DNA from: a bacterium
GTDB taxonomy: Bacteria > UBA8248
Length of the DNA: 64,000 nucleotides
Reading direction: 5' to 3'
Assembly (NCBI GenBank): GCA_965242545.1
Contig: OZ251456.1
Coordinates: forward strand, 21,146 to 85,145
Shown here piece by piece: positions 1 through 57,679 of this stretch. A program made the position numbers and the translations under genes. The notes below the pieces were generated by a model. The model did no database searches and was not told the DNA's origin. It saw only the letters and a program-made list of their open reading frames with translations. Each line of letters starts with the position of its first letter. Position 1 is the first letter of the stretch.

Positions 1-1252
1 CGGCCAGCCACAGGGCGGCCATGATGGCCGGCTCGGGGCGCCGCAGTATCAGCGCGAGCAGATAGACGTTCGCCCCGATCCCCAGAAGCGGCAGCAGCGG
101 CACGAGGGGCACGCGAAAGGGCCTCGGCAGATCCGGGAATTTCCTGCGATGGCGGATGAGGGCGGCGTTCACCAGTATCAGCGCCAGCAGGAGAATGGCG
201 TCCGCGAAGTGCGCCAGCTTCTCCAGGTGAAAGCTCTGCGCGAAAAGGGCGACGCCTCCGCCCACCAGAAGAAGCGAGATGATGGGCGTGCGCGTGCGCG
301 GGTTGATGGCGGCGATGCCGGCGGGCAGGTGTCCCAGCTGCGCCATGGACAGCGCGACGCGGGAGCCCGCCAGAATGGACGCGTTGGACGCGGAGATCAT
401 CGAGAAAAGCGCGCCCACGACGATCACCATGCCGCCGATCGGTCCCAGGAATAGACGCGCCGCGTTGCCCATCGCCGCCTCCGTGTATTCCGTGAGGTTC
501 GCGGCGATGATCACGAAGACCACCAGGGTGTAGAGAATCGTCACGATCGCCATGGAGAGGAAGATGGCGCGGGGAATCGTCCTGACGGGATTGATGACTT
601 CCCCGGCCGAGGCCGCAATCGCCGAGAAGCCGAAGAAGGTGATGAAGACCAGACCCGCCGTCGCGCCGATTCGGGGGAGGTCCGCGCTCATTCTCTCCGC
701 CAGCGCCCGCGCGTCCAAGCTCCCCAGCCCGCCCCAGACGAACCAGACCAGAAGGATGACCTTGCCGGCGGTGATGAGGATTTGAAAGCGCGCCGACTCC
801 TTCGTTCCCTTCACGTTGAGCAGGACGAGGCATATCAGCCCCAGCGTCCCCGACATCTGTTCATAGGGAGAATGCCAGACGAACTCGTTGAAATACGAGG
901 AGAGGCTGCTGATGTAGAAGGCGCACGAAGAGGCGTAGCCGAGCACCAGCGTCCACCCCACCAGATAGGCGAGCGGCGGCGGAAACGTTCTCCGCGCGTA
1001 GAGATACCCCTCGCCGGATTCCGGGTAGATGGAGGAGAATTCGCAATACGTCAGCGCGGTGAAGGCGGCGACGAGGGCGGCGAGAAGAAAGGCGGCGACG
1101 GCCGAGGAGCCCACGTCGCGGACGGCTAGGCCGGAGAGCGTGAAGATGCCCGCCGCTATCATCGTCCCGACGCCGATGGAGAGCGCGGAGACGAGGCCCA
1201 GGTCCCGACTGAGTTCGGTTTCGATGCGCAGGCCGCCGTTGGGCTTGTTCAT
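1..1252 (-). CDS. APC-family amino acid permease (N-terminal part; gene continues beyond window start)
   Basis: Hand translation of the minus strand from ATG at 1250-1252 gives MNKPNGGLRIETELSRDLGLVSALSIGVGTMIAAGIFTLSGL..., and the frame stays open to base 1. It is absent from the ORF track because no stop lies inside the window. The polytopic hydrophobic pattern and the GxGIF motif are typical of APC transporters. Confidence 0.65.
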   Translation of the reverse strand, partial: MNKPNGGLRIETELSRDLGLVSALSIGVGTMIAAGIFTLSGLAVRDVGSSAVAAFLLAALVAAFTALTYCEFSSIYPESGEGYLYARRTFPPPLAYLVGWTLVLGYASSCAFYISSLSSYFNEFVWHSPYEQMSGTLGLICLVLLNVKGTKESARFQILITAGKVILLVWFVWGGLGSLDARALAERMSADLPRIGATAGLVFITFFGFSAIAASAGEVINPVRTIPRAIFLSMAIVTILYTLVVFVIIAANLTEYTEAAMGNAARLFLGPIGGMVIVVGALFSMISASNASILAGSRVALSMAQLGHLPAGIAAINPRTRTPIISLLLVGGGVALFAQSFHLEKLAHFADAILLLALILVNAALIRHRRKFPDLPRPFRVPLVPLLPLLGIGANVYLLALILRRPEPAIMAALWLA

Positions 1253-2112
1253 CGCAGCTCCGCCAGAAATTTCCGGAGCTCCCGCCGCACGACGGAGGGC
1301 TGGGAAACGGTCGGGAAATGACCGGCTCTCGCGCACAGCGCCGCGCGCGATTTTCCGGGCAGCGCGTCCAGCAGCGATTTTTCCGCCTCGGCGGAAAAGC
1401 GCCTGCTCTTTCCCCCGCGAAGCACGAGCGCGGGACATTCCGTCCGCTTCGCCCAGAAAACGGGATCGTAGTCGCTCGCCGAAGACGCCTGGAATTCCCG
1501 CAGCCGAAGAAGCCTGTCCTTTTCATAGGGCGCCCTGAGAGCGCCGTCCGCGTCGCCGCGCGTCAGAACGTCCGAGAGGAACCGTTCCGTCTCCGCGAGC
1601 GGCCAATGCCCCTCCTCGGCGGACGTGATGAATTTCCGCGCCTCGGCCAGGCTCCCGAATTCCGTCGGCCGCTCCCGCGCCGCCTCCAGGATCGCGCGGG
1701 CGTCCGCGCCGTCGGGCGTCGTCGGGTCCATCAGCACGGTCCCGACGACGCGATCCGGCCGGCCGGCGGCGGCGGCCAGGGCGACGGCGCCGGCGAAGGA
1801 GTGGCCCATCACCACGAAGCGATCCAGCAGGAGGGCGTCGGCGAGGCCGATGACGTCCCTGGCGAAGTCCGCGGCGGCGTCGCCCCCGCCCGGATCCTCC
1901 GTCCTTCCGTAGCCCCTCTGATCCGGGCATATCATGCGCAGCGTCCCCGCCCCTTCGGCCGTCGCGCTCCACATGCCGCCGCAGCCCAGCGAGCCGTGCA
2001 GCGCGATGACGGGCGCGAGCGAATTTCGCCGCGCCGGTCGCCATTCCCGGAACGACATCCGGAAGTTCGACACCGTCTCGAAACCGGCATACCAGCCGCC
2101 CTTGCCGCGCAT
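1249..2112 (-). CDS. alpha/beta hydrolase fold protein
   Basis: 287-aa ORF with a GHSFAG nucleophile-elbow motif. Its TGA stop overlaps the downstream permease ATG (ATGA). Confidence 0.65.
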   Translation of the reverse strand: MRGKGGWYAGFETVSNFRMSFREWRPARRNSLAPVIALHGSLGCGGMWSATAEGAGTLRMICPDQRGYGRTEDPGGGDAAADFARDVIGLADALLLDRFVVMGHSFAGAVALAAAAGRPDRVVGTVLMDPTTPDGADARAILEAARERPTEFGSLAEARKFITSAEEGHWPLAETERFLSDVLTRGDADGALRAPYEKDRLLRLREFQASSASDYDPVFWAKRTECPALVLRGGKSRRFSAEAEKSLLDALPGKSRAALCARAGHFPTVSQPSVVRRELRKFLAELR

Positions 2113-2691
2113 GTTTCCCTCATTTGAAGAAAGAAGCGGCGGGCGCGGGGAGTCCCACCCTGTCGGGAAGGCGCCCGCTCCCTCTCGCCGCGATGAAGAG
2201 GAGACGCCGTGAGGCGCGAATTCGCTCCCGCGAGCGGGAGAAAGCGCGATGACGCCCCTCGAAATATCTCTAGGAAGAGCCGCCTACGCGGGAGACGGCG
2301 ACGCGGCGGGCGCGAAAGCGGTTTTTCTCGCCGGCCGTCTACTCGAAGAATGGGCCCGCCTCCGGGTCCCGGTGGAGCGGATGGCGCGCGCCGCTTTCGT
2401 CCGGGGTCCGCGCGGCTCCGGGCGGAAGAAAGGAGTCCGGCCCCGGTAGGCGCTTCAGGCCGGGCTCCGCCGCGCGAATGAAGCCGCGGCCCCGGACTCC
2501 GCCGTCTCGAACGCCCGTCAGCTCCGCCGCCGGACGGGCGACGGGAGGGCCGGGGGCGCGGGCCGCGTCCATGTCGATCTCCTCTTCCGGGCTCGAAGCG
2601 TCCAGCCGCGATTCAACCACGAAAGGGGGCGCGTGTCGAGAGGCGTCCGCGCGGAAGCCCGCGCCGCCGAGAAACCGCGCCCCGGGGCTCG

Positions 2692-3471
2692 TCACCAGGG
2701 AATGTCCGGCTCGGCGAGCGCGCCGGGCGCCTCCGCCGTCTCCAGCAGGTCGAGCATGGCGCGAAGCGCGGCGCGCTGCTGGCCGGCGTTTCCCGGCCTC
2801 CCGAAGGGGTGGCCGAGCGGCCAGGGCAGGAAGACCGCCCTCGGGGGGCGCAGCTGAAGGGTGATCTCCTTCACCAGGGTCGCCGAGACGGTGGGCATCC
2901 CCGCCCTTTCCACCGCGTTCTGAATCAGCCCGACCGAGCGATGGCACAGCCCTCAGGCGGGGGCGAGCAGCGCGGCGTCCGCGCCCGCCTCCCGGAGGCG
3001 CCGCGCCGCCTCGGGCGCCGTCTCCTCGATGAGCCGGGGCAGAAGCGCGCCGTCGACGTGGCCCATGAAGCTCAGGTGCGCGTCGGCGACCCCGCCCGTC
3101 CTCCCCTCCGCCGCCAGCTCCCCGAGCCGCTCGTGGGGAAAGACGACGTTCAGGTCCGCGTCCGCGCCCCGGTGGTCGTAGTAGTCGTGGGTGATCGTCA
3201 GCTCCCCGCGCCCGGCGTCCGCCGGTATCTCCCGAAACGTCGGGTCGCCGTCGGGGTTCTCCATGTCGAAGGGGGTCTGCGTTTTGAGATGCACCCCCCC
3301 CGTCGTCACCAGCCCGAGCCGGCGCCCGGCGAGCGGCCGCGTCAGCGGCGTCCAGGGCGTCTCGCCGGCGAGGTCGGAGAAATCCCGCGTCCCCGCCCAT
3401 TTCCTCACCAGCCCCGGCCGGCGCGTCAGGAGGCGCGCCACCATCCTGTCCTTCCACCTTCTGAGACCCAA
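2692..3471 (-). CDS. PrdB/GrdB-family selenoprotein B-like reductase with an in-frame TGA (Sec) codon at 2953-2955
   Basis: ORFs 2953..3471 and 2692..2913 are in the same frame, separated only by one TGA. Across the junction the protein reads ...ALLAPA-U-GLCHRLVGLIQNAVERAGMPTV.... The motifs LVTTGGVHLKTQTPFD and U-G-x-C-H-R match my recollection of D-proline reductase PrdB (AGVHLKTD ... AGUGTCHR). Total length ~259 aa (248 ORF-listed residues plus the 11-codon junction with the TGA), versus my recalled ~240 aa for PrdB. Confidence 0.55.
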
Positions 3472-3588
3472 AGCCCCGCCTCCCCTGAAAGCCGCGCGCG
3501 CCGATGATAGCCGGGACCGGAGCCGGCGGGCAATCCGGGCCGCGTTCCGCGGGTCGCCATCGGCGCGATCCGGCCCGAAGCCGGCGGC

Positions 3589-3617
3589 TTGACGCGCGCG
3601 CGCTCCCTCAATATATT
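3589..3617 (+). promoter_or_regulatory. sigma70-like promoter TTGACG-N17-TATATT upstream of the DedA gene
   Basis: -35 TTGACG at 3589-3594, a 17-nt spacer, and -10 TATATT at 3612-3617, about 50 nt upstream of ATG 3666. Confidence 0.35.
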
Positions 3618-3665: not shown

Positions 3666-4388
3666 ATGAGCGACCCCGAACCCCGGCGAAAATTCTCGCC
3701 CCGGAGATTCCTCCTCCCGGCGGCGCTCCTCGCCGTCCTCGCGCTGTTCTTCTGGTCGGGGCTCGACCGCTACCTCACCCTCGAGGCGCTGCGGGAGAAC
3801 CGCGCCGCGCTCCAGGGGTGGGTGCGCGCGAACGGGGTGCTGGCCGTCCTCGCCTACGTGTTCGCCTACGCCGCCGTCACGGCCTTCTCGCTCCCCGGGG
3901 GCGCGGTGATGAGCGTCGCGGGCGGGTTCCTGTTCGGAACCCTCTGGGGGGCGCTCTACATAGTCGTGGGCGCGACGAGCGGCGCGCTGCTCCTCTTCAT
4001 GGCGGCGAAGACCGCCCTGGGCGACCCCCTGCGCGCGAGGGCGGGCCCCTGGTTGCTGAAGATGGAGCGGGGCTTTCAGAAGAACGCCCTGAGCTACCTG
4101 CTCGTTCTGAGGCTCGTGCCCCTGTTTCCCTTCTTCGTGGTGAACCTGGCGCCCGCCTTCCTGGGGGTGTCCCCCGGCGTCTATCTCCTCGGCACGTTCT
4201 TCGGCATCATCCCCGGCTCCCTCGTCTTCGCCTCGGTGGGGGCGGGGCTGGGCGCCATCTTCGAGGCGGGGGGCGAGTTCTCCGTCGGGAGCGTCCTGAC
4301 GCCCCAGGTCCTCCTCGCGCTCGGGGGGCTGGCCGTCCTCTCCCTCGTTCCGGTCGCCTACAAGAAGTTCAAGCCGAAGGACGACTGA
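3666..4388 (+). CDS. DedA / TVP38-TMEM64 family membrane protein
   Basis: Hydrophobic polytopic protein with the conserved ...GFLFGTLWG...LRLVPLFPF... signature. ATG at 3666 (MSDPEPRRKF) is the likely start, inside the longer ORF 3504..4388. Confidence 0.7.
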   Translation: MSDPEPRRKFSPRRFLLPAALLAVLALFFWSGLDRYLTLEALRENRAALQGWVRANGVLAVLAYVFAYAAVTAFSLPGGAVMSVAGGFLFGTLWGALYIVVGATSGALLLFMAAKTALGDPLRARAGPWLLKMERGFQKNALSYLLVLRLVPLFPFFVVNLAPAFLGVSPGVYLLGTFFGIIPGSLVFASVGAGLGAIFEAGGEFSVGSVLTPQVLLALGGLAVLSLVPVAYKKFKPKDD

Positions 4389-6172: not shown

Positions 6173-7306
6173 TCAGCCCTCCTTGAGGGCGGGCATCACC
6201 TCCCGGGCGAACCTCTCCATGCTGGCGGCGGCCTTCTCGACGTCCAGATTCCCGAAGTGAAAGTAGATGACCATGCCGCCGAAGCCCATCTTCTCCTTCT
6301 GCGCCATCAGTTCGTCGCGCACCGCGCGGGCGTCGCCCACGGCCGCCATGCCGTCGCGCATGAGCCGGGCGGGCGTCCTCTCCTCCTCGCCGAGCAGCCC
6401 CAGCGGCTTCGCGTCCCCGCGCCCCGGCGGCCGCCGGGGCGGGAGGCTGCCGGGGAACCGGCGCGCGAGCTCCGCCAGAATCTCGGGCTGTGCCCCGTAG
6501 AGGCTTCGCCAGTAATACGAGAGGGCGGGGCTCGCCTCCTCGACCGCCCGGGAGCGGGAATCCGCCACGTAGACCTGATGCTCCAGCCAGACGTGCTCCG
6601 CCTTCGCCTCCCAGCCGTGGGCGCGGCACCTCTCGCGGTAATAGGCGGCCTTTTTCAGGAGGTCGTCGAACGGCCGGTGGCTCAGCACGACGGGCGTCCG
6701 CGTCCTGGCGCCCCAGTCGAGCGAGGCTTCGGAATCGGCCGGGAAGAGAAGGGGCGGGTGAGGCCGCTGCCAGGGCCGCGTCCAGAGCTGGCAGCGCGGG
6801 TAGCGGAAATAGGCGCCCTCCCAGTCGAAAGGCTCGGTCTCGCGCCAGGCCTTGAGGATGAACTCCCACGCCTCTTGGAAGCGCCCCCGGCTCTCGGCCG
6901 GGTCCACGTTGTAGGCCAGATACTCCCGGTGCGCGCCGCGCAGGAAGCCCGCCACGACGCGCCCGCCGCTCAGCACGTCGAGTGCCGCGACCTCCTCCGC
7001 CACGCGCAGCGGCTGGGGGTAGAGGGGCAGGCAGTAGCCCAGGATGGCGATTCTCGCGCGCTTCGTCCGCGCGGCGATGTGGCCCGCGAAGACGCCCGGG
7101 GTGGGCATCGAGCCGAAGTGCGTCCCGTGATGCTCGTTCAGGCCGATGCCGTCGACGCCCGCCGCCTCGACGCGCTCCCAGAAGCGGAAGTGCGCCTCCC
7201 ACAGCGCGCGGGCCTTCCTCGCGTCGAACGCCGAGGCGTCGTGCGGATAGCGCGCCCCGCCCTCCAGATAGGGCCAGGGGATGGTGTCGAACGAGTAGAT
7301 TTGCAA
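6173..7306 (-). CDS. LLM-class flavin-dependent oxidoreductase (luciferase-like monooxygenase)
   Basis: 377 aa with typical LLM TIM-barrel motifs (GIGLNEHHGTHFG..., ...ILGYCLPLY...). Confidence 0.75.
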   Translation of the reverse strand: MQIYSFDTIPWPYLEGGARYPHDASAFDARKARALWEAHFRFWERVEAAGVDGIGLNEHHGTHFGSMPTPGVFAGHIAARTKRARIAILGYCLPLYPQPLRVAEEVAALDVLSGGRVVAGFLRGAHREYLAYNVDPAESRGRFQEAWEFILKAWRETEPFDWEGAYFRYPRCQLWTRPWQRPHPPLLFPADSEASLDWGARTRTPVVLSHRPFDDLLKKAAYYRERCRAHGWEAKAEHVWLEHQVYVADSRSRAVEEASPALSYYWRSLYGAQPEILAELARRFPGSLPPRRPPGRGDAKPLGLLGEEERTPARLMRDGMAAVGDARAVRDELMAQKEKMGFGGMVIYFHFGNLDVEKAAASMERFAREVMPALKEG

Positions 7307-8148: not shown

Positions 8149-9543
8149 CTAGAACCGCGCGAGGAGGCTCACGCTCCCGCCGACCTCCCTGTTCTCGCCG
8201 GCGGCGGAGAAGTCCACGGAACCCCGAATCTCGTATTTTCCCTCTGCCCAGGCGTGAACGCCCCCGGCCCGCAGCCGAACCCGGGACGCCTCGGCCCTCG
8301 CCTTCAGCCGCTCGCCCGAGACCCTCGCGCTCGTCCCCGCCGAGAAGTCGTGCTCGAAGCCGGCCGCCCCGAACAGACGACCCGCGCCCGTCCGCTTCTC
8401 CACGCTCACCCCCGCCGCGCCCGTGAACATCTCGCCGTCCTCGATCGACACCCGCGAACCCACCGAGTCCGTGAAGTCGTCCAGCGAGACAGAGGAATGA
8501 ACCAGCCGGACGCGCGGCGTGAACGTCAGCCCCCCGGATTCGACCCGGCGCCCCAGCTCGACGCCCGCCGCCCAGCCCGAACCCGACGCCCCCGTCTCCA
8601 GCGCGCCCCGCGCGTCGGAGTCCAGATCCGCCTCATACGCGGTCGCCTCGAGCTGGGCGTCCAGATAGAAGCCCCCGCCAAGCCCCACGGCGGCCGAGAC
8701 GCCCACGCCGCTGCCGCTCACCTCGATCTCCCCGCTCCCGTCCACCTTCGCCGAGCCTCGCCCGTGACGCGCCGAGAAGCCGAGCAGGGCGTTCGCGCCC
8801 AGGCTCACGTCCACGCCCACCCGGACGCCGTAGCGGTCGTATTCATACGTCACGCCCGTCTCGGAGGCGTCCGCCTCCCAGTCGCCGCTCGCGCCCTCCG
8901 CCCGCGCCCAGACGCCGCGCGGCGACCGCGGCGCGCTCATCCGCTCCTCATGCGAGAGCATCCCGTTCATCCTCAGCAGAACCGAGGGCAGCGCCTCGTA
9001 GAGCTCGCAGCGGCGATCCCGCGCCCGGACACAGGAAAACACCGAGAGGTCGAGCGTCGAGAGGTCGAGCGGCTCGTCCTGGTCCTCCACCTCGAAGGTG
9101 GCGCGGTCGGTGATATTCCCCTCCTCGTCCACGAGCTCGACCTTCACGGTCTCGGCGCCCTCGACGGAGCCGCCCACCCGCTCCCGGATCGCCTCGCCCA
9201 CGTCCTCCTCATCGTCCCGCACCCGCACCGTGAGATCCACCGTCTCGCCCTTGATAAGCGGTTCGTCCGGATCGTTGTGCTCGGACCGCTTCACTGTTCC
9301 CGTTTCTCCGACCGTTATTTCCGTGGGGACGCACGACTCAACGGTGCCTATCACCTGGCCGTGAATGATGATGGTCGACCTGGGCTTCTGACGCCGCTGC
9401 CCTTCCGGGCAGTCCTCCTGCGCCCGCGCCTCCCCGGCGGAAAGCGTCAGCGCCGCCAGAAGCGCGGCGAGGAGAGGGATTCCTCGTCTCGCGCCTTTTG
9501 AACCGGGTAAAGAGCGGTCGTCTCCGTACAATCGCTTTCTCAT
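8149..9543 (-). CDS. autotransporter (type Va) outer-membrane protein: signal peptide, short passenger, C-terminal beta-barrel
   Basis: The signal peptide is MRKRL...LLAALLAALTLSAGEARAQE. The C-terminal ~300 aa are homologous to the C-terminus of the giant protein at 24042..30692 (YEALPSVLL..ERMSAPRSPRG...VRLVHSSVSLDDFTD...AGVSVEKRT...). It ends in ...LLARF, an aromatic terminal residue typical of OMPs. Confidence 0.7.
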   Translation of the reverse strand: MRKRLYGDDRSLPGSKGARRGIPLLAALLAALTLSAGEARAQEDCPEGQRRQKPRSTIIIHGQVIGTVESCVPTEITVGETGTVKRSEHNDPDEPLIKGETVDLTVRVRDDEEDVGEAIRERVGGSVEGAETVKVELVDEEGNITDRATFEVEDQDEPLDLSTLDLSVFSCVRARDRRCELYEALPSVLLRMNGMLSHEERMSAPRSPRGVWARAEGASGDWEADASETGVTYEYDRYGVRVGVDVSLGANALLGFSARHGRGSAKVDGSGEIEVSGSGVGVSAAVGLGGGFYLDAQLEATAYEADLDSDARGALETGASGSGWAAGVELGRRVESGGLTFTPRVRLVHSSVSLDDFTDSVGSRVSIEDGEMFTGAAGVSVEKRTGAGRLFGAAGFEHDFSAGTSARVSGERLKARAEASRVRLRAGGVHAWAEGKYEIRGSVDFSAAGENREVGGSVSLLARF

Positions 9544-9731: not shown

Positions 9732-9801
9732 GTTGAGCGTTGAGCGTTGAGCGTTGAGCGTTGAGCGTTGAGCGTTGAGCGTTGAGCGTTGAGCGTTGAG
9801 C
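9732..9801. repeat. heptanucleotide tandem repeat (GTTGAGC)x10
   Basis: Perfect 70-nt array ~190 nt upstream of the autotransporter start at 9543. It lies between that gene and the cas9 remnant. Confidence 0.9.
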
Positions 9802-23760: not shown

Positions 23761-23923
23761 TTGCGCGGGGGTTGAACTTCGCCAACTCTTTTTGTTACAA
23801 TGGCGGTCATCATCGGTTTTGACGCGGGACTCGAACGAAACGGGAATCGACCGCTTACAAAGGGGGCAGCGCACATGAGCATGTTCAGCTTGTCCGCGCC
23901 TTGGGATTTGGGGCATACTGGCG

Positions 23924-24023
23924 CCGACTCACCGACTCACCGACTCACCGACTCACCGACTCACCGACTCACCGACTCACCGACTCACCGACTCACCGAC
24001 TCACCGACTCACCGACTCACCGA
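23924..24023. repeat. octanucleotide tandem repeat (CCGACTCA)x12.5
   Basis: Perfect 100-nt array immediately 5-prime of the giant autotransporter gene's ATG at 24042. It lies within the TTG-initiated ORF 23901. Confidence 0.9.
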
Positions 24024-24041
24024 CATGAGAAGGGGCGCGCG

Positions 24042-27000
24042 ATGAGAACGCCGGACGGCGCGGGACGCAACTATGCGTCCCCTACAAAATCGTCGCCGCC
24101 CTGTTTCCGTAGGGGGCGCGGACAACCACGGGGGGTTGTCCCTACGGATATAAAACCGGCATGGGGGCGGCTGGCGGGGCTTCTCGCCGGCTTGGCGCTG
24201 GCGGGGCTGCTGCTGGCGCCGGGGGAGGCGCGGGCGCAAGCCCTTCTATGCGGGAACTCGAACAACGTCCGCTTGGACTGCCCGAATCGGGATTATCCCG
24301 ACGGCATCGTCTATGGCATCGCGGGCGACAGCAGCAATATCAGCCACGGCATCCCCCAGACGCTCAACCTCCTGGGCCACAGTTCCGGGCCGATCACGCT
24401 CACGGCCGGCGCCCGGGGGGTCGCCTTCGGCGCGCGAGCCAGCGGAGGGGCAGGCCTCACGTTGAACATCGGCGGCGCGACGGGCGGGACCGCCCACGTC
24501 GTCAGATTCGTCCAGGGGACGAACTCGGTCTCCGGCATCGACCGGAACAACGGCATCTATGTTTGGCGTACGGCCAACAACACCGGCGCGAGCACAACGC
24601 TGAACGTGAAAGCCGGTGTGACCATCGGCACGATGGCCACGCCGATGAAGCAGCACGGCATCTTCCTCCGCCCGCACGCCGACCGCCCCTCCGCTGGCCG
24701 GGGCAGCGCCGGCCTCACCCTCACCAGCGCGGCGACCATCCATGCCGCCCGGCAGGGCATTCGGATAGTCCGGCAGACCGGGGGCACCAACGACGCGACC
24801 ACCGTCACCAACACCGGCGCCATCCACTCGGGCGTCGGCAACGCCGCCGCCACCGGCAGCTACGTCGACCGGCCGCACGGCATCTACGCGCTGCATGGGG
24901 GGACGCAGAGGACCGGCTCGCTGACCGTCACCAACTCGGGCGACATCACGGTGGGGGGCGCCTACACCGGCATCCTGATGAACTACTGGGGCGCCGGCGC
25001 CCTGAGCCTCGACAACCGCGGGGACATCGCCGCGGCGACGGGGCAGACGGCGAAGCAGGGCATCCAGTTCAACTACAAGTACTGGGACAACCAGAGCGCC
25101 CAGGCCATCACGCTCACGAACTCCGGCGACATCACGGCGTCCGAGTTCGGCATCCGGCTCACGAAGCTCTCGGGCGGCGCGGTCGAGCTCACGAACAGCG
25201 GCGCCATCACGGTGACGGGCGACGCGGCGCAACACGCGGGGCACGCCATCTATCTGGCGGAGGGCGTCACCTTCGGCGAGGGCAGAACCTACGCCGCCAA
25301 CGGCGGCGCCCTCACGGTCGACAACAGCGGTGTCCTCAGCTCGAAGAACCACGCCCTCTACGTCTACCTGGCCACGGCGGACGACGACGTCGAGCTCGAG
25401 AACAGCGGCGACGTCGTCTCGGAGGAGGGGGACGGCATCCGGATCGAGCGGGTCGTCGAGGGCGACGTCGCGGTCGAGAACAGCGGGAGCGTCTCGGGGA
25501 AGGGCCACGGCATTTACGTGGGCCAGGCGGCGCGGATCGACTTCGAGCAGTCGGGGTCGGGGACGATCAGGGGCCGGACGGGGGTCTATCTCGGTGTCGC
25601 GAAGGAGAGCGCGTCGGGCGACTCGCGCAGCACGGACAGCGGCGGGGATCACATCCCCGCGATCGACGTGACCTGGTCGGGCGGGAGCGTGGCGCGGGGG
25701 CCGGCGACGACGGGCGCCCGCTTCACGGCGACCACCTGGCTGGAGACGTCCGTCGCCGACCGGGAGGCGACGGTGGTGAAGTCGGTGGAGGATTCGCTGC
25801 GCTGGGGGGCGGCGGCGGGTCTGGAGGCGCGCGTCCTGTCCTGGCGGGCGGTGATGGAGCAGGTGGCGGCGGGCGACGATCCGGGCGTGATAGCGAACGC
25901 GGCGGCGCAGACGACGCTGCTGGCGACGAGCGGGGCCGGTTCGCGCCGGGCGACCATCCTGGCGCAGGTCCGGGCGATGCTGGGGAACGATGACCTCTCG
26001 GTGGGGACGGATCTCCTCACCGCCATCGACTCGACGGCGACGAGCGTGAGCGACCTGAGCGACGCGGAGATCGCGACCTATCTGACCCAGGACGCCCCGG
26101 ACATCCGGATCATTCTGCGGAACATCCTGCGTTACGGCCTCTCGGCCGCCGAGAAGGCGGTTCTGGCGGCGGTCGTGGCGGGGGACGGCACGGCGCTCAC
26201 CACCGCGCTGGCCGTCACGACGCCGGCCGCCTTCTCCTCCGCCTACAAGACGGCGGTGACCGGGCTGCTGTCCCGCTACAACCTGGACGACGTCAGCGTC
26301 AGCATGACGGGCGGCGAGATCGCCTCGCGCGGCGACGGCATCCGGGCCTATTACGCGACGGCGAACGACAGCAACGGGAGCGTGGAGATCACCATCGGCG
26401 CGAACGCGGCCGTGGAGGGAGACGTCCACGGGATTCACGTTTCGGGCGGCGGGGTGAACGCCTCCAGCGTGAAGCAGCAGCGCGTCACCGTGAACGGGAG
26501 GGTGACGGGCGGGACGGGGGCGGGCGTTCACCTGGTGGGCGGGGGGACGGTGACGGTGGGCGCGGGCGGGCGCGTGGGCGCGACCTCGGGCACGGCCATC
26601 GAGACCTCGGACGGCGGCGATCTGACGGCGGCCATCTCCGGGCGGGTGGAGGGGGACATCCGGGCGGCGGGGACGCTGACGCTCACCTCGGCGGCGGGGA
26701 GCGTGATCACGGGGACGGTTCACGACCCCTCGGGTTCGCTGTCGGTGGCGGGGAGCATCGGGCGGATCGTCTATACGAGCGGGGGGACGGTGACGGTGGC
26801 GGCGGCGGGCCGGCTCACGGGGGTGTCGGGCGAGGCGGTTCGCAGCGACTCAGGCGATTTGAGCGTGACCATCGCCGGGCGGGCGACGGGCGACGTTGAG
26901 GCGGGGGGCAGCGGGAACCTGACCCTGAGCCTCACCGGGAGCGGGCGGCTGGACGGCGACGCCGAGGCGGGGGGGACGCTGACGCTGACGGCGGCGGCGG

Positions 27001-30000
27001 GGACGGTGATCACGGGGACGGTTCACGACCCTTCGAGCGCGTTCACGACGGTGTCGGGGAGCATCGGGCGGATCGTCTATACGAGCGGGGGGACGGTGAC
27101 GGTGGCCGCGGCGGGCCGGCTCACGGGGGCGTCGGGCGAGGCGGTTCGCAGCGACGCGGGCAACCTGAGCGTGACCATCGCCGGGCGGGCGACGGGCGAC
27201 GTTGAGGCGGGGGGCAGCGGGAACCTGACCCTGAGCCTCACCGGGAGCGGGCGGCTGGACGGCGACGCCGAGGCGGGGGGGACGCTGACGCTGACGGCGG
27301 CGGCGGGAACGGTGATCACGGGGACGGTTCACGACCCTTCGAGCGCGTTCTCCACGGTGTCGGGGAGCATCGGGCGGATTCTCTACACGAACGGCGGGAC
27401 GGTGGCGGTGGCCGCGGCGGGCGCTTTGACGGGGGTTTCGGGCGAGGCGGTTCGCAGCGACGCGGGCAACCTGAACGTGGACGTCTCGGGCCGGGCGGGG
27501 GGCGACGTCATCGCCAACGGCGGGGGCGATCTGGACCTGGACGTGCTGGGTTCGGGGCGGGTCGAGGGTGACGTCAAGACCTCGGGCGGGGGCGACCTGG
27601 ACGTCTCCCTGGCCGGCACCGGGCGGATTGACGGCGACGTGCGCGCCCAGGGCGGGGGCGACCTGACGCTCGCCTCGGCGGCGAATACCGTCATCACGGG
27701 CACGGCCTACGACCCGACGGGCGCGCTGTCGGTGGCGGGGAGCGTCGGACGGATTCTCTATACGAACGGCGGGGACGTGACGGTCGCATCGGGGGGCGCC
27801 CTGACGGGCATCGATGGCGTGGCCGTCCGCAGCGCCGCGGGGAACCTGGACGCCGACGTCGCCGGGCGCGCGGGAGGCGACGTCATCGCCAACGGCGGGG
27901 GCGATCTGGACGTGGACGTCTCGGGTACGGTCGCGGGCGACGTTCTGGCGAACGGCGGCGGCGACCTGACGGCGGACCTCACCGGGACCGGGCGGGTGGA
28001 AGGCGATATCCGGGCCTCGGGCGGGGGGACGCTGACGCTGACGGCGGCGGCGGGGACGGTCATCACGGGGACGGTTTACAGTCCCGCGAGTCCGTTCACG
28101 GTGTCGGGGAGCATCGGGCGGATTGTTTATACGAACGGCGGGACGGCGACGGTGGCCGCGGCGGGCGCCCTGACGGGGGTCTCGGGCGAGGCGGTTCGCA
28201 GCGAGGCGGGGGACTTGAGCGTGACCGTCGCCGGGCGCGCGGGAGGCGCCATCCTGGCGAACGGCGGGGGCGACCTGACGACGGACGTCTCGGGGACGGT
28301 CGAGGGCGACGTTATCGCCTCGGGCGGGGGCGACGTGGAGGTGGACGTCACGGCCGCCGGGCGGATCGAGGGAGACGTTCGCGCCGAGGGCGGCGGGATG
28401 CTGACGCTGACGGCGGCGGCGGGGAGCGTCATCACGGGGACGGTCTACGGCCGCCCCGCGGGCGCGTTCACGGTGGAGGGCAGCATTGGACGGCTGGTCT
28501 ACGCGAGCGGGGGCGAGGTGACGGTCGCCGAGGGCGGCGTCCTGACGGGGGTGGATACCGGGGACGGCATGGAGGTGATTCGGAGCGAGGCGGGGGATTT
28601 GAGCGTCACGGTGGCCGGGCGGATCGGGGGCGGCATCCGCTCCGCGGGCGGCCTGGACGTCACGATAACGAGCGCGGCGCCGGGCGACCTCCGCGCGGGC
28701 GGCGACATGACGGCGGATATATCCGGGACGGTCGAGGGCGACCTGGACGCCGGCGGCGATTTGACGGCGACGATCACCGGGGAAGTCGAGGGCGACCTCG
28801 CCGCCGGGGGCGACATGACGGCGGAGATTTCGGGAACGGTCGAGGGGAGCGTCCGCGCGGGCGGGGCCGTGACGGCGGAGCTCTCCGGGCGGATCGAGGG
28901 CGACCTGGACGCCGGCGGGGCGCTGGCGCTGACGGCGACGTCGGGGAGCGTCATCGCGGGCACGCTTCGCGGCCCCGGGGGCGCGTTCACGGTGAGGGGG
29001 AGCATCGGGCGGATCCTTTACCGGGGGGCGGGGACGGTGACCGTGCCCGAGGGCGGCGTTCTGACGGGCGTGGATACCGGGGACGGCATGGAGGTGATTC
29101 GGGGCGAGGCGGGGGACTTGAGCGTGGTGGTGGCCGGGACGGTGGGGGGCGGCATCCGCTCCGCGGGCGGCCTGGACGTCACGATAACGAGCATGGTGCC
29201 GGGCGACGTTCGCGCGGGCGGCGACGTGACGGCGGACGTCTCCGGGACGCTGACCGGCGACCTGGACGCCGGGGGCGACATGACGGCGGATATCACCGGG
29301 ACGCTGACGGGCGACGTGGTCGCCGGGGGTGATTTGACGGCGGATATTTCGGGGACGGTTGACGGGAGCGTCCGCTCCGGGGGCGACCTCACGGCGGTGA
29401 TCACCGGGATGGTGACGGGCGACGTGGAGGGACCGGGCGCGGGCGATCACACCGTGACGGTCTCGGCGGGGGCGGTGGTGACGGGAACGGTTCACCTGGC
29501 GGCCTCCACCGTGCGGGTGGACGGGACGGTGGGCGGGGTGCGCTTCCGGCGGGGCGGAACCCTCACCATCGGGCCGAACGGGCGGATACTGGCGGGCGAA
29601 GGGGTGGCGATACGCAACGACCGGGGCGCGCTGACGGTGACGATAGAGGCGGCCCCGGGCGAGCGGCCCGAGGAGAGCGTCGCCCGGGTGGAGGGGACGG
29701 TGGTGGACCCGGGCGGGAACGAGCGGGCGCGGACGCTGACCCTCCTCTCGACGGACGGGCAGACGGCCGAGCTGAGCCTGGACCTGGAGGGGCGGATCAG
29801 GAGCGGCCTGCCCCCGCGCGCGAAGGTGTATGAGGCGCTGCCCTCGGTTCTGCTGGGCATGAGCCGCCCGCTCTCCTACGGGGAGCGGCTGAGCGCGCCG
29901 CGCTCGCCCCGGGGCGCCTGGGCGCGGGTCGAGGGCGCGAGCGCCAGCTGGAAGGCGGTCTCCTCCGCCTCGGACGCGGAATACGACATGAAGCGCCACG

Positions 30001-30692
30001 GCGTCCGCGCGGGCGTGGACCTGCGCGCGGGGGCGGACTTCCTGCTCGGCTTCTCGGTTCATCACGTTCGGGGCTCGGCGAACATGGGCGCGGACGACGA
30101 GGGCGGGGAGCTCGAGGCGCGGGGCAGCGGGCTGGGGCTTCACGCGGCGTGGGCCTTCGGCGGGGGCTTCTACGCGGCGGGGCAGTTCGAGGCGACCTCC
30201 TACGAGGCGGACATGGAGTCGGACCGGCGGGGGGAGCTGGAGACGGGCGCCCGCGCCCTGGGCCTGACGGTCGGGGCGGAGCTGGGGCGCCGCGTCGCCT
30301 CCGGGGGGGTGACCATCGCCCCGCGCGTCCGGCTGGTTCACGCCTCGGTCTCGATGGACGACTTCACCGACGAGGCGGGCTCCGAGGTCTCGGTCAAGGA
30401 CGCCGCCAGCTTCACGGGCGCGGCGGGCGTGAGCGTGGAGAAGCGCACCCGCGCCGGGCGCGCGTTCGTCTCGGCGGACTTCGAGCGGGAGTTCATCGAG
30501 GAGACCCGGGTGAAGCTCGACCGCGACGCCCTGAAGGCCAAGGCGTCGGAGAGCCGGCTTCGCCTGCGCGCGGGCGGCCTCCACGCCTGGGGCGGGGGCA
30601 GATACGCCGTGCGCGGCGCCCTGGACTTCTCCGCCGCCGGCGATGAAAGCTACGAGGTCGGCGGCAGCCTCGCCTTCCGCGTGAGGTTCTAG
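24042..30692 (+). CDS. giant autotransporter adhesin (~2,216 aa) with a repetitive passenger domain and a C-terminal beta-barrel
   Basis: Signal peptide ...WGRLAGLLAGLALAGLLLAPGEARA-QA. Passenger domain of Gly/Thr/Val-rich beta-helix-like repeats, including ~101-aa modules repeated near-identically. The C-terminal 300 aa are homologous to the 8149..9543 protein and end in ...FRVRF. Start codon uncertain: ATG 24042 reads through a palindromic repeat module. Confidence 0.7.
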   Translation: MRTPDGAGRNYASPTKSSPPCFRRGRGQPRGVVPTDIKPAWGRLAGLLAGLALAGLLLAPGEARAQALLCGNSNNVRLDCPNRDYPDGIVYGIAGDSSNISHGIPQTLNLLGHSSGPITLTAGARGVAFGARASGGAGLTLNIGGATGGTAHVVRFVQGTNSVSGIDRNNGIYVWRTANNTGASTTLNVKAGVTIGTMATPMKQHGIFLRPHADRPSAGRGSAGLTLTSAATIHAARQGIRIVRQTGGTNDATTVTNTGAIHSGVGNAAATGSYVDRPHGIYALHGGTQRTGSLTVTNSGDITVGGAYTGILMNYWGAGALSLDNRGDIAAATGQTAKQGIQFNYKYWDNQSAQAITLTNSGDITASEFGIRLTKLSGGAVELTNSGAITVTGDAAQHAGHAIYLAEGVTFGEGRTYAANGGALTVDNSGVLSSKNHALYVYLATADDDVELENSGDVVSEEGDGIRIERVVEGDVAVENSGSVSGKGHGIYVGQAARIDFEQSGSGTIRGRTGVYLGVAKESASGDSRSTDSGGDHIPAIDVTWSGGSVARGPATTGARFTATTWLETSVADREATVVKSVEDSLRWGAAAGLEARVLSWRAVMEQVAAGDDPGVIANAAAQTTLLATSGAGSRRATILAQVRAMLGNDDLSVGTDLLTAIDSTATSVSDLSDAEIATYLTQDAPDIRIILRNILRYGLSAAEKAVLAAVVAGDGTALTTALAVTTPAAFSSAYKTAVTGLLSRYNLDDVSVSMTGGEIASRGDGIRAYYATANDSNGSVEITIGANAAVEGDVHGIHVSGGGVNASSVKQQRVTVNGRVTGGTGAGVHLVGGGTVTVGAGGRVGATSGTAIETSDGGDLTAAISGRVEGDIRAAGTLTLTSAAGSVITGTVHDPSGSLSVAGSIGRIVYTSGGTVTVAAAGRLTGVSGEAVRSDSGDLSVTIAGRATGDVEAGGSGNLTLSLTGSGRLDGDAEAGGTLTLTAAAGTVITGTVHDPSSAFTTVSGSIGRIVYTSGGTVTVAAAGRLTGASGEAVRSDAGNLSVTIAGRATGDVEAGGSGNLTLSLTGSGRLDGDAEAGGTLTLTAAAGTVITGTVHDPSSAFSTVSGSIGRILYTNGGTVAVAAAGALTGVSGEAVRSDAGNLNVDVSGRAGGDVIANGGGDLDLDVLGSGRVEGDVKTSGGGDLDVSLAGTGRIDGDVRAQGGGDLTLASAANTVITGTAYDPTGALSVAGSVGRILYTNGGDVTVASGGALTGIDGVAVRSAAGNLDADVAGRAGGDVIANGGGDLDVDVSGTVAGDVLANGGGDLTADLTGTGRVEGDIRASGGGTLTLTAAAGTVITGTVYSPASPFTVSGSIGRIVYTNGGTATVAAAGALTGVSGEAVRSEAGDLSVTVAGRAGGAILANGGGDLTTDVSGTVEGDVIASGGGDVEVDVTAAGRIEGDVRAEGGGMLTLTAAAGSVITGTVYGRPAGAFTVEGSIGRLVYASGGEVTVAEGGVLTGVDTGDGMEVIRSEAGDLSVTVAGRIGGGIRSAGGLDVTITSAAPGDLRAGGDMTADISGTVEGDLDAGGDLTATITGEVEGDLAAGGDMTAEISGTVEGSVRAGGAVTAELSGRIEGDLDAGGALALTATSGSVIAGTLRGPGGAFTVRGSIGRILYRGAGTVTVPEGGVLTGVDTGDGMEVIRGEAGDLSVVVAGTVGGGIRSAGGLDVTITSMVPGDVRAGGDVTADVSGTLTGDLDAGGDMTADITGTLTGDVVAGGDLTADISGTVDGSVRSGGDLTAVITGMVTGDVEGPGAGDHTVTVSAGAVVTGTVHLAASTVRVDGTVGGVRFRRGGTLTIGPNGRILAGEGVAIRNDRGALTVTIEAAPGERPEESVARVEGTVVDPGGNERARTLTLLSTDGQTAELSLDLEGRIRSGLPPRAKVYEALPSVLLGMSRPLSYGERLSAPRSPRGAWARVEGASASWKAVSSASDAEYDMKRHGVRAGVDLRAGADFLLGFSVHHVRGSANMGADDEGGELEARGSGLGLHAAWAFGGGFYAAGQFEATSYEADMESDRRGELETGARALGLTVGAELGRRVASGGVTIAPRVRLVHASVSMDDFTDEAGSEVSVKDAASFTGAAGVSVEKRTRAGRAFVSADFEREFIEETRVKLDRDALKAKASESRLRLRAGGLHAWGGGRYAVRGALDFSAAGDESYEVGGSLAFRVRF

Positions 30693-54440: not shown

Positions 54441-55607
54441 GTGTCTCTGGCGAATCTGGACAGGGAAGCGCTCCGTAAAAAGGTGATGGAGGCTTACGAT
54501 GCGGATAACCCCCATCTCCAGCGGTTCCGGGAACATGCGCGCCGTCTCCGGGACGGAGTGAAGCCGCTTCGCGCATATTCAGCGCACGCGGTCTCGTCGG
54601 TCTCTGCGGATGGCGGCGACAATCGCCTCACGTTTAATCCGGTAGTTGTTGAACTCATCCGGGTTGTGGATTCGCGAGGTATGGAGTGCGTACTTGATGT
54701 CGTCGCCAGCACCAGCACTTTGAAAGAACTGGGAGGGCGCGCCGAGCCGGGATCGGAACATGGAAATCCTCCCTTGCAGCGACTAGCCCAGGATACCGGA
54801 AGGACGCTCGAATATATGGCGTCAAACCTCATCAGAGGCATCGGGACTCCGGGCGGAAGCACCACGGCGATGCGCTGTTACCGCGACATCGTTGAGTGGG
54901 CCGTGCTTTACGATTTTGTTGCGAACCCCAATCTTCAATTGGGTAACGATACAATTCTGGTGCGAGACGGCCTTCTCCGAACCAAGTCCTTCTCGCGGGA
55001 CATGTTCCCTTTGCTGGATGAAAAGATCCGTGGCGGCGTAGCCGCGCACGCGCAAAAAAACGTGCGACTCTCAATCGTGGGCGTAGCGAAGCAAAGCGCC
55101 GTTCTCGGACGACTTGCGGTCGCTCTTGAGCTGGAAGCGACGTTTCACAAGGATTACCCATGCTACGTTCGCGTCGATCGGGACATAGAGAAAGAGTGCT
55201 ACGATTTCGACAGCTCTTGGTTTGAGACGTACGAAACAACAGAGGAAGACAACGCCGGCCGCCGGTTGTACCAATCTCTGGGGCGTCTCCATCTTGTGAA
55301 GTTCGGGGACAGTCCAATGGATCCGGTCTGGCCTGTTGATATCGCTGAATGGCAGGTGGGGGGCGCCGACCGCATTCTGGGGCAACTAATGGCCGACGCC
55401 CAAGAAGGCTTCCCCATCCCCGATTACCCGATGTGCATTCAGCGAGCGCATAACTATGCGAAAATATCGGGTCTCGAAGTCCAGGACCTACAGGATATGC
55501 TTTTCCAAGGATTGTGCAGCAAACTTACAAATGAAGAGTCCGAGCGTCTCCTTCGCATGAAGCACTTGGGGCAAACGCTGGCGGATCTCAGATACAGGGA
55601 AGCCTGA
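54441..55607 (+). CDS. NurA-like nuclease (RNase-H-fold) partner of the HerA-like ATPase
   Basis: 388 aa. The motifs VSADGGDNRL (~aa 55) and TILVRDGLL (~aa 175) resemble NurA DGS-type catalytic motifs. It is immediately upstream and co-directional with a HerA-like ATPase, and lies in lower-GC sequence. Confidence 0.4.
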   Translation: MSLANLDREALRKKVMEAYDADNPHLQRFREHARRLRDGVKPLRAYSAHAVSSVSADGGDNRLTFNPVVVELIRVVDSRGMECVLDVVASTSTLKELGGRAEPGSEHGNPPLQRLAQDTGRTLEYMASNLIRGIGTPGGSTTAMRCYRDIVEWAVLYDFVANPNLQLGNDTILVRDGLLRTKSFSRDMFPLLDEKIRGGVAAHAQKNVRLSIVGVAKQSAVLGRLAVALELEATFHKDYPCYVRVDRDIEKECYDFDSSWFETYETTEEDNAGRRLYQSLGRLHLVKFGDSPMDPVWPVDIAEWQVGGADRILGQLMADAQEGFPIPDYPMCIQRAHNYAKISGLEVQDLQDMLFQGLCSKLTNEESERLLRMKHLGQTLADLRYREA

Positions 55608-55711
55608 AAAAATGCTGTTTTCGAAACGCGCGCATCGTTGGAGCGTTCAAGGGCTTTAATGAGCGCGGCTTTGAGTTTGCGGCTGAAATTATTGCCCCGT
55701 ACGACGCTGGA

Positions 55712-57679
55712 ATGCTTGATCGTCCTCAACTCGGCCAGTTCCTTCTTGTTGAGCTCGGCTCACGGGAAGAGGCCGCGCTCGGACGCATAACGCGCCTCGT
55801 TCCTTCCGGGCTGCTGACGACGCCGGAAGGTGAAGACTACATCACTACGATGCAGCGCAGGCAGCAAGAGGTGCCCGAAGACCTGAAGCAACAGCGCCTG
55901 AAGTATCGCGTTCAGGTAAAACTGCTTGGGGCTGCGCGCGCAAGCGGAAGCGAAATCATCTATGTTCCATCACAGCGGAGACTGCCGCATCTCGGCGCGC
56001 GCGTCGCGTTGCCCAGCGATCTGGTTTTGCGGGAACTATGCAAACTGAGCCAGGGAGAAACGGAGCTGGGGTCATACGTGTTGGGCGAATTCGTATTCTG
56101 CGGCGCTAGTCATAGACAGCGCCAGCGCGAACTGCTCTCTTTGGATCCTCGCCTTCAGGTTACCTTTGACATCAAAAACCTTGTGTCCCGCCGTTCTGTC
56201 GTTTTCGCGCGCGCGGGCTACGGGAAGTCCAATCTCGTCAAGTTTCTTGTCGCCGAGTTATACAAGACGCAGCCGACGACGGGGAGCGGCCGCCCCGTCG
56301 GCACGCTGATTTTCGATCCCGATGGCGAGTATTTCTGGCCTGACCGCGTTGCGGATCGCTCGGGGCTGTGCGATGTGCCGCACCTGAAGGATCGGCTTAT
56401 CGTGTTCACCAACCGGCCAGCGCCAAATCCATACTATGGCAGCTGGAAGGCCGGCGAAGTGAAGCTAGACATCCGAGATATCGCCCCGCGTGACGTGATC
56501 GGCATTGCGATTCCTTCCGACCGCCAAACCCAGCAGAACGTGCTCAAGCTAAAGAGCGTTTCACGCCCAAACTGGCGCGAACTCGTCGATCTGATCCATG
56601 GAGAAGGACTTCGGGCCGAGGACGATGAAATCGGAAAACTTCTTGGCTATGCAGGACCTCAAATCTCGAACGCGGGGGCCGAAATCGCGGCGGCTCGCAG
56701 CAACATGTTCAACGTTGTGCGTACCCTCCACGATCCTGCCAGCAAGTTGCTGGCGAGGACGCTCCGCGCTCTGGCCAAAGGCCAGGTTGTCATAATCGAC
56801 ATCAGCTTGTTGAGTTCGGGTACCGGCAACATGCTTGCCGGTCTGCTTCTCAGGCGGATTTTCTCGCATAACCAGGAGAACTTTACAGGCGGGAATCCCG
56901 TAATCCCCGCCGTCGCCATCGTAGAGGAGGCGCAGAGCGTTCTCGGCCGCCGTCTGGACGATACCAGCCCTTATGTCGAATGGGTAAAGGAAGGGCGCAA
57001 GTACGATCTCGGAGCCATGCTCGTTACGCAGCAGCCTAGCGCGCTGGCGCCCGAATTGCTCAGTCAGGCGGACAACTGGTTTTGTTTCCATCTGCTCTCC
57101 GAAGGCGATGCCGAAGCGCTTGGAAAGTACAACTCCCACTATTCATCGGACATTCTCGCTCATCTCATCGCGGAGCCTATCCCCGGCAATTGCTACATGT
57201 GGAGCGCACCGCATCAGCCCTTCGTGCTTCCGGTTCGATTGCGAGACTTCGGCGAAATCTATGGGGACAACATACGGAAAGAAGATGATGCGTCGCCCAT
57301 AGAAAAAACCGGGACTCAGGAAGTTATCAAGGAGCAGTCGGACGCGATGGCCCGCATCAGAGATTGCGTCCGGGAGCAACTGAAAGAAAATCGCACAGAT
57401 AGAGGCTTTCCGATTAAATACTATAGAATACCTGATGCGCTTCCCGAAGGCAGGGAGGGGGTTGGGATCAAAGATGGCCAACTGTACTACCTCATCAAAG
57501 CCTGCAAATCTCCCGAAGATCCCCACACGGAAGATGAGTTGAAACGCCCAATTCTCGAGCTGTTGCTTGGAGAAGGAATCTTATGGGTCAAAAAGCATGA
57601 GAATGCGGATTACTACTGCGCCGCCCCGGAAGATTGGGAGCGCGTGATCGGAAAGAAGCCGACCCTTTCGGATCCATAA
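55712..57679 (+). CDS. HerA/FtsK-like P-loop ATPase (DUF87-type)
   Basis: Walker A FARAGYGKSNLVKF, Walker B plus catalytic Glu VAIVEEAQSV, and sensor LVTQQP. 655 aa. The size and motifs fit HerA-family translocases. Confidence 0.6.
   Translation: MLDRPQLGQFLLVELGSREEAALGRITRLVPSGLLTTPEGEDYITTMQRRQQEVPEDLKQQRLKYRVQVKLLGAARASGSEIIYVPSQRRLPHLGARVALPSDLVLRELCKLSQGETELGSYVLGEFVFCGASHRQRQRELLSLDPRLQVTFDIKNLVSRRSVVFARAGYGKSNLVKFLVAELYKTQPTTGSGRPVGTLIFDPDGEYFWPDRVADRSGLCDVPHLKDRLIVFTNRPAPNPYYGSWKAGEVKLDIRDIAPRDVIGIAIPSDRQTQQNVLKLKSVSRPNWRELVDLIHGEGLRAEDDEIGKLLGYAGPQISNAGAEIAAARSNMFNVVRTLHDPASKLLARTLRALAKGQVVIIDISLLSSGTGNMLAGLLLRRIFSHNQENFTGGNPVIPAVAIVEEAQSVLGRRLDDTSPYVEWVKEGRKYDLGAMLVTQQPSALAPELLSQADNWFCFHLLSEGDAEALGKYNSHYSSDILAHLIAEPIPGNCYMWSAPHQPFVLPVRLRDFGEIYGDNIRKEDDASPIEKTGTQEVIKEQSDAMARIRDCVREQLKENRTDRGFPIKYYRIPDALPEGREGVGIKDGQLYYLIKACKSPEDPHTEDELKRPILELLLGEGILWVKKHENADYYCAAPEDWERVIGKKPTLSDP

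Follow-up and report, generated by a model that had tools for sequence, protein, structure and literature searches.

A PrdB-like gene with a conserved in-frame UGA, probably decoded as selenocysteine, and without proline reductase partners in its neighborhood

Two open reading frames on the minus strand of the window (the whole stretch of 64,000 nt that was analyzed) follow each other in the same frame. Does the TGA codon between them end a short protein, or is it read as selenocysteine (Sec) within one longer protein, and would this protein then be a subunit of D-proline reductase? A preliminary description of the locus had taken the two frames for one interrupted gene, and reading of the sequence confirmed that the TGA at 2953-2955 is the only internal stop. 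The elements of the gene are:

2953..3471 and 2692..2913, minus strand: the two open reading frames as listed, in the same frame and separated by the single stop TGA 2953-2955
2692..3444, minus strand: complete PrdB-like selenoprotein gene, start ATG 3444-3442, 250 codons including the presumed Sec163, terminator TGA 2694-2692
2953..2955, minus strand: in-frame TGA of U163, with which the U-G-L-C motif begins, taken to encode selenocysteine on the basis of the conserved TGA and of Cys homologs
2944..2946, minus strand: TGC codon of Cys166, presumed resolving thiol of the UxxC pair, with C present in all Sec-type loci and in the CxxC of Cys-type relatives
3449..3455, minus strand: Shine-Dalgarno-like GGAAGGA, 4 nt upstream of ATG 3444, read directly off the sequence

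The TGA stands in the context ...DAALLAPA-TGA-GLCHRSVGLIQ.... The GC content at third codon positions (GC3) of the frame was 0.95 before the TGA and 0.92 after it, and competing or overlapping alternative frames at the locus had values of 0.63-0.73. Since GGAAGGA precedes ATG 3444 and close homologs begin with MVARLL, this ATG is the likely start codon rather than TTG 3471. Comparison to 20 relatives from the same clade gave 267/300/743 substitutions by codon position upstream of the UGA and 320/260/600 after it, with no stop in 78 codons. Judged from these sequences, the region 3' of the UGA is under purifying selection. TGA terminates 15 of 35 other well-supported open reading frames of the window, and therefore the genetic code is standard; the terminator of the PrdB-like gene itself is also TGA. 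A scan for other genes with in-frame TGA revealed no credible candidate within the 64-kb window, and a looser scan across all related loci returned mostly off-frame noise.

At least 577 species-representative genomes gave a match; we compared loci from 80 of them, each of which aligns across residues 1-250. The TGA was present at the identical alignment column in 78 of the 80 genomes, which places its conservation far beyond chance. These genomes are labeled as Nitrospinota, Ca. Tectomicrobia, Thermodesulfobacteriota, Nitrospirota, Binatia, NC10, Acidobacteriota and others. The two exceptions are L071, which has GGA, and L069, in which the codon is unresolved. Cysteine occupied the UGA column in 13 full-length relatives, some of them labeled Chloroflexota, Bacillota or Rubrobacter, with C-x-x-C-H aligned to U-G-L-C-H. 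The column of Cys166 was invariantly C in the Sec-type loci and was also C in the CxxC motif of the Cys-type relatives. Thus, orthologs continue through the codon and do not terminate there. The earlier proposal of Sec in a UxxC motif is supported by the Cys homologs at the same column, by the conserved TGA and by the SECIS-like hairpin described below.

Most relatives in the databases are about 170 aa long and cover 65% of the query, which is the signature of gene callers halting at the UGA. In every public assembly examined, the gene was split into an open reading frame of 163 aa and one of about 70 aa. The identical N-terminal product of 163 aa was found in independent public metagenome assemblies. 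Two apparently full-length database entries, P0004 and P0018, show W at the Sec column. The codon behind the W of P0004 was checked and is TGA, which is untranslatable under table 11.

Some loci deserve mention in their own right. The GGA (Gly) of L071 lies at 6487-6489 in a single Deltaproteobacteria MAG, in which the hairpin is unchanged; Sec may have been lost recently in this locus, the copy may be inactive, or the base may have been miscalled. In the PrdB-like gene of L097 the TGA is replaced by CGA (Arg) and the hairpin is intact. Two more candidates for selenoprotein genes, both split by gene callers, are found within 5 kb in L097. One, at 8230 on the plus strand, is AhpD/CMD-like with C-E-Y-TGA (CxxU), and the other, at 9780 on the minus strand, is a redoxin with W-TGA-P-H-C (UxxC).

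Bacterial SECIS elements are described as stem-loops that lie just 3' of the UGA and have a G in their small apical loop (PMC1088965). A candidate for such an element emerged when 74 distinct sequences were aligned without gaps around the UGA:

2924..2942, minus strand: SECIS-like hairpin AUC-GCUC-[GGUC]-GGGC-U-GAU, loop 2932-2935, bulged U 2927

Counted from the U of UGA, the hairpin occupies positions +14 to +32, which places it 11 nt downstream of this codon; its predicted stability is -5.1 kcal/mol. We folded it alongside the SECIS of E. coli fdhF, the sequence of which was verified in more than 5,400 genomes. Both share a GGUC apical loop, an upper stem of 4 bp, one bulged U and a lower stem. 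The predicted stability of the fdhF element is slightly higher (-5.7 kcal/mol) and its loop starts 18 nt after the UGA, compared to 17 nt in the window, whereas the bulged U is on the 5' side in fdhF and on the 3' side in the window. The prdB SECIS of C. difficile, unlike the fdhF element, was reported to escape recognition by E. coli (PMC11229817). The clade of the window departs from the register of the wider family and folds with the GGUC loop instead: unlike the fdhF element, most of the wider orphan family has an 8-bp stem and a triloop containing G-U (GUG, GUU or similar) at the same position.

Compensatory changes were seen at pair 24-40 (U-A in 47 sequences, C-G in 12) and at pair 27-37 (G-C in 54, A-U in 4, via two synonymous changes), and pair 28-36 of the family hairpin is A-U in 2 sequences. 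Synonymous variation was zero across codons +5 to +9 in 19 distinct sequences of the clade, at a gene-wide mean of 0.25. The hairpin of the window alone was no more stable than shuffled sequence (z = -0.39), and the 76 nt around the UGA also did not fold better than shuffles; the signal emerged only in the comparative alignment. Searching positions 2600-3100 against Rfam at a permissive threshold returned chance hits and no match to a SECIS family. The covariation is confounded because the hairpin encodes the conserved peptide RSVGLI, and we therefore consider the SECIS-like hairpin well supported, though short of proof.

The assignment to the PrdB/GrdB family that had been made beforehand proved correct. 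The TIGR04483 model for PrdB matched along its full length (E 2e-45), and the alignment was collinear between residues 28-241 and model positions 17-225 of 238 (209 positions). The score of 155 bits, however, stayed below the equivalog cut-off of 300. Seven orphan-type proteins, that of the window and six relatives, scored 116-202 bits, and the genuine PrdB used as control, P0140 (242 aa), reached 434 bits. TIGR01918 (E 6e-12, 45 bits, curated cut-off 65) and the Pfam GRDB model PF07355 (E 1.6e-3, 18 bits, curated cut-off 22) also matched below their cut-offs. The motif AGUGTCHR, which the preliminary description had given for PrdB, fits the canonical protein (GGCGTCHR in P0140), while the branch studied here has U-G-L-C-H/N.

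Canonical PrdB of C. sticklandii or C. difficile (Sec151/152) and the protein of the window are of similar length (about 240-250 aa), belong to the same fold family and are collinear. Both have the redox residue at the same place in (U/C)-G-x-C-H-R, as U163-G-L-C166 of the 250-aa protein corresponds to about position 152 of PrdB after the 11-residue offset of the HMM match. The motifs GG(V/I)H, GDxx(F/Y)R and FMG are also common to both. In contrast, SHGGFDN and FMGGGG of PrdB are replaced by THDYYDH and FMGHVDG, the protein of the window has an extra N-terminal helical segment of about 27 residues, and the orphan branch occurs in non-clostridial, largely non-fermentative lineages. Homology to GrdB, GrdF and GrdH (PF07355, TIGR01917/01918; about 430 aa) is restricted to their C-terminal half including the Sec region (model positions of about 268-409). 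The protein of the window lacks the N-terminal half of these proteins, and grdA, grdE and grdC are not nearby.

For comparison of the gene neighborhoods we used the locus of P0140 (L094), in which an operon comprises genes for an RnfC-like PrdC, PrdA (PF09338), a 65-aa open reading frame at the position of PrdH, and PrdB, with a proline racemase gene further downstream. PrdA is the pyruvoyl proprotein that joins PrdB in the active complex, and D-proline reductase converts D-proline to 5-aminovalerate. PrdH is a maturation factor described in 2024 and has 92 residues in C. difficile. The 65-aa frame of L094 (7792-7989, between prdA and prdB) was assigned to no Pfam family by gene callers. Searches by tblastn with PrdA, the 65-aa PrdH-like protein and the racemase of L094 gave no match, neither in the window nor in roughly 90 orphan loci adding up to 0.99 Mb, and L094 itself was positive. 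PF09338 did not match any open reading frame of the window, and neither prdC nor prdH nor prdF (proline racemase) was found in its 64 kb. RnfC-like matches were located 4-5 kb away from the PrdB-like gene in six Thermodesulfobacteriota loci; in L093, the only one of these with called genes, the match is followed by an RnfD-type gene and belongs to an Rnf operon. The view of a stand-alone protein with unclear function was therefore borne out by the absence of PrdA, PrdC, PrdH and PrdF nearby. We concluded from the score below the cut-off, the missing prdA partners and the replaced motifs that the protein is PrdB-like and not PrdB.

We consider it very probable that this intact gene encodes an orphan PrdB-like selenoenzyme of about 250 residues, with UGA163 as Sec in a UxxC redox pair and acting without PrdA. 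Other explanations have to be weighed against this. If the UGA were a true stop, a truncated protein of 163 residues would be made, with or without a 73-residue product starting at GTG 2913, and Sec decoding may have been lost. The gene callers of every database split the gene in this way, the window lacks Sec machinery, and the adjoining CDO-like gene has decayed in this strain. However, the region behind the UGA is free of stops and under purifying selection, the UxxC motif straddles the break, synonymous changes are absent from the core of the hairpin, and the putative GTG start is located 13 codons past the UGA within conserved sequence. This makes a true stop highly unlikely. A standard amino acid (Trp, Gly or Cys) might also be inserted at the UGA, by a variant code or by near-cognate read-through, and the column is indeed rendered as W in P0004 and P0018. 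We give hardly any credence to such recoding, as the TGA behind the W of P0004 is untranslatable under table 11, TGA ends 15 of 35 open reading frames of the window and the PrdB-like gene as well, and the position-specific hairpin together with the Cys homologs indicates Sec. A pseudogene, arisen by a nonsense mutation in a former Cys-type gene, or a sequencing error would require a single change, since TGA is one nucleotide away from TGC or TGT. This reading is effectively refuted, and left with next to no probability, by the recurrence of the TGA in 78 of the 80 genomes compared and in other, independent assemblies with the identical N-terminal product, and by the intact GC3 and selection downstream. 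The conserved TGA, the Cys homologs, the downstream selection and the standard code, when combined, were taken to exclude pseudogene, sequencing error, split gene and code change.

A different question is whether the protein could nevertheless be a bona fide PrdB, with prdA, prdC and prdH elsewhere in the genome. The homology to the PrdB model spans the full length, and JGI pipelines call relatives 'D-proline reductase (dithiol) PrdB'. We regard this as very unlikely, because the score is about half of the cut-off while true PrdB P0140 from a prd operon clearly exceeds it, because the tblastn searches for PrdA, the PrdH-like protein and the racemase were blank in the window and in the orphan loci, because the two motifs SHGGFDN and FMGGGG are replaced, and because the gene content of the window looks aerobic.

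For the orphan PrdB-like selenoenzyme we propose the following course of events. UGA163 would be decoded as Sec, with the hairpin at +14 to +32 and its GGUC loop recruiting SelB with Sec-tRNA(Sec), and translation would proceed past Sec163 over 87 further codons to the ordinary UGA stop. Sec163 and Cys166 (U-G-L-C) would form a selenol/thiol redox pair. By analogy to PrdB, Sec163 would most likely be the nucleophile in the reductive bond cleavage of a small substrate; for PrdB, an attack of Sec on the substrate is established, and replacement of Sec by Cys (U151C) abolishes activity (PMC11229817). The adduct would next be resolved by Cys166 to a selenenyl-sulfide, which a cellular thiol or electron donor would reduce again. 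Because no pyruvoyl subunit (PrdA) would take part, D-proline is an unlikely substrate. That this organism actually inserts Sec, the steps of catalysis and the kind of substrate are inferred. An AlphaFold2 model of P0004, a relative with 51% identity, predicted a single compact alpha/beta domain (pLDDT 93, pTM 0.91). Searching the PDB by sequence revealed no related solved structure, and Foldseek with the P0004 model against the PDB returned nothing significant (best E 7e-3, TM 0.29). Since no solved structure with the same fold was found, the catalytic cycle is drawn by analogy.

Tentatively, and at somewhat less than even chances, the orphan PrdB-like proteins with Sec or Cys in UxxC may constitute a distinct, PrdA-independent enzyme family, with a remodeled active site (HDYYDH and FMGH versus SHGGFDN and FMGGGG) and a substrate still to be discovered.

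The neighborhood of the gene in the window contains the following features:

3504..3533, minus strand: sigma-70-type promoter-like site TTGCCC-18-TATCAT upstream of the selenoprotein gene, consensus match only
3589..3617, plus strand: divergent promoter-like site TTGACG-17-TATATT upstream of the VTT/DedA gene, consensus match only
3666..4388, plus strand: divergent gene for a VTT-domain (DedA/TVP38-type) membrane protein of 240 aa, PF09335 E 2e-20
2273..2571, minus strand: remnant of a CDO_I cupin (cysteine-dioxygenase-type) gene that has lost 291 bp internally, in frame, and contains an in-frame stop
1249..2112, minus strand: alpha/beta-hydrolase gene, Abhydrolase_6/1 (Pfam), at the same position in 18 loci of the clade
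1..1252, minus strand: amino-acid permease gene, cut by the window edge, PF13520/PF00324, next syntenic gene downstream

The spacer of 220 bp between the PrdB-like and the VTT/DedA genes holds both promoter-like sites, and two such sites were found in the region at an expectation of 0.1. VTT genes are neighbors in 16 of 81 loci, in three of them, from unrelated phyla, directly adjacent. In one database protein of 395 aa on a 6-kb Logan contig (P0119), a complete VTT/DedA domain is followed by the N-terminal portion of a PrdB-like sequence, which breaks off at the Sec position. P0119 is either a true gene fusion or a product of gene calling across two genes; a true fusion would support a functional link between VTT/DedA and PrdB-like proteins. 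The VTT association is recurrent and not universal, and we treat it as a lead and not as a conclusion.

Downstream on the same strand, the order CDO-type cupin, hydrolase and permease is common to 13-18 relatives of the Nitrospinota clade, depending on the gene, and neighborhoods outside this clade differ from that of the window. A CDO_I-type cupin gene succeeds the selenoprotein gene in all 18 close relatives. The deletion in the window was recognized relative to contig L084, which is about 96% identical and has the identical N-terminal product, and shows a 5-nt microhomology. The selenoprotein gene is intact beside the cupin remnant, and therefore the two genes are not obligately coupled. 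Adjacency or fusion to VTT/DedA and the thiol-dioxygenase-type cupin of the clade hint at membrane-associated chemistry of a thiol, selenol or sulfur compound.

A heavy-metal (CPC-motif) P-type ATPase gene is located about 0.2-0.5 kb upstream, mostly on the same strand, in 11 loci (L032, L038, L044, L049, L060, L064, L067, L068, L071, L074 and L077) with the labels Deltaproteobacteria, Thermodesulfobacteriota, Desulfobacterales, Desulfarculus or Thermodesulfovibrionales. In L091, a Cys-type locus from Chloroflexota, genes for CorA, MgtE and Nramp transporters follow the PrdB-like gene. These ATPase and transporter neighbors may hint at a metal link. A Pfam census of 97 immediate neighbors from 58 distant loci resulted in 147 families, the commonest of which occurred in 7 loci, and thus revealed no conserved partner and no hint at the substrate; PrdA-, GrdA- or thioredoxin-like families were not among the 25 families listed. 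Clustering of the neighbors by BLAST also showed clade-specific synteny only, without a universal partner.

In the 64-kb window selA, selB, selD and tRNA-Sec were not found, and tRNA scans of the window and of 47 related loci gave no hit. With genes for F-type ATP synthase, monooxygenases, a Rieske protein, FAA hydrolases and transporters, the window looks like ordinary chromosome with an aerobic flavor. Two other regions stand out. Positions 54441-57679 (plus strand) have a GC content of 0.57-0.58, compared to about 0.65-0.70 elsewhere, and contain a 388-aa frame without Pfam hit followed by a 655-aa HerA/DUF87-type ATPase; this may be a horizontally acquired module, perhaps for defense or DNA translocation. 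Positions 23823-30692 (plus strand), the most GC-rich part of the window with a GC skew of +0.19 to +0.24, harbor an open reading frame of 2,289 codons. Pfam recognizes a single bactofilin domain in it, near residue 1630, and nothing else, and it probably encodes a repetitive or low-complexity surface or cytoskeletal protein.

A family that fits this description has been catalogued before. The selenoproteomes of the Sargasso Sea (2005) and of GOS (2008) were analyzed by Zhang, Gladyshev and co-authors. In the Sargasso Sea data, 'Proline reductase PrdB (UxxC)' ranked third in abundance among the selenoprotein families, with 42 genes (PMC1088965), and in GOS, where 235 Sec and 110 Cys forms were counted, it was again one of the most abundant families (PMC2398784). 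Matched by description, this family and the orphan branch share the relation to pfam07355, the UxxC motif, the abundance in oxic environmental metagenomes and the existence of Sec and Cys forms. Both papers left the missing PrdA and the function unaddressed; otherwise there is no difference in kind. Reviews still list the PrdB (UxxC) family plainly as D-proline reductase, and annotation pipelines label the relatives as PrdB or as 'selenoprotein B family protein'. Our searches of the literature for 'PrdB-like' proteins and for proline reductase in Nitrospina revealed nothing. MAGs labeled Nitrospinota (GTDB UBA8248) were reported to have 48-54 selenoproteins (PMC13326102), which is at most indirect support for Sec machinery in the organism of the window.

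The gene of the window is thus a genuine but ordinary member of the already catalogued orphan PrdB-like selenoprotein family. It adds one member and a clear contrast to a genuine prd operon, and no new principle. Since gene callers split it in every public assembly examined, recognizing the selenoprotein corrects the annotation, and the gene marks the organism as a probable Sec decoder. At least 577 species genomes contain members of the orphan branch, which is also abundant in ocean metagenomes. As its members are labeled 'D-proline reductase' despite scores below the equivalog cut-off and the missing PrdA, it represents a large, misnamed selenoenzyme family.
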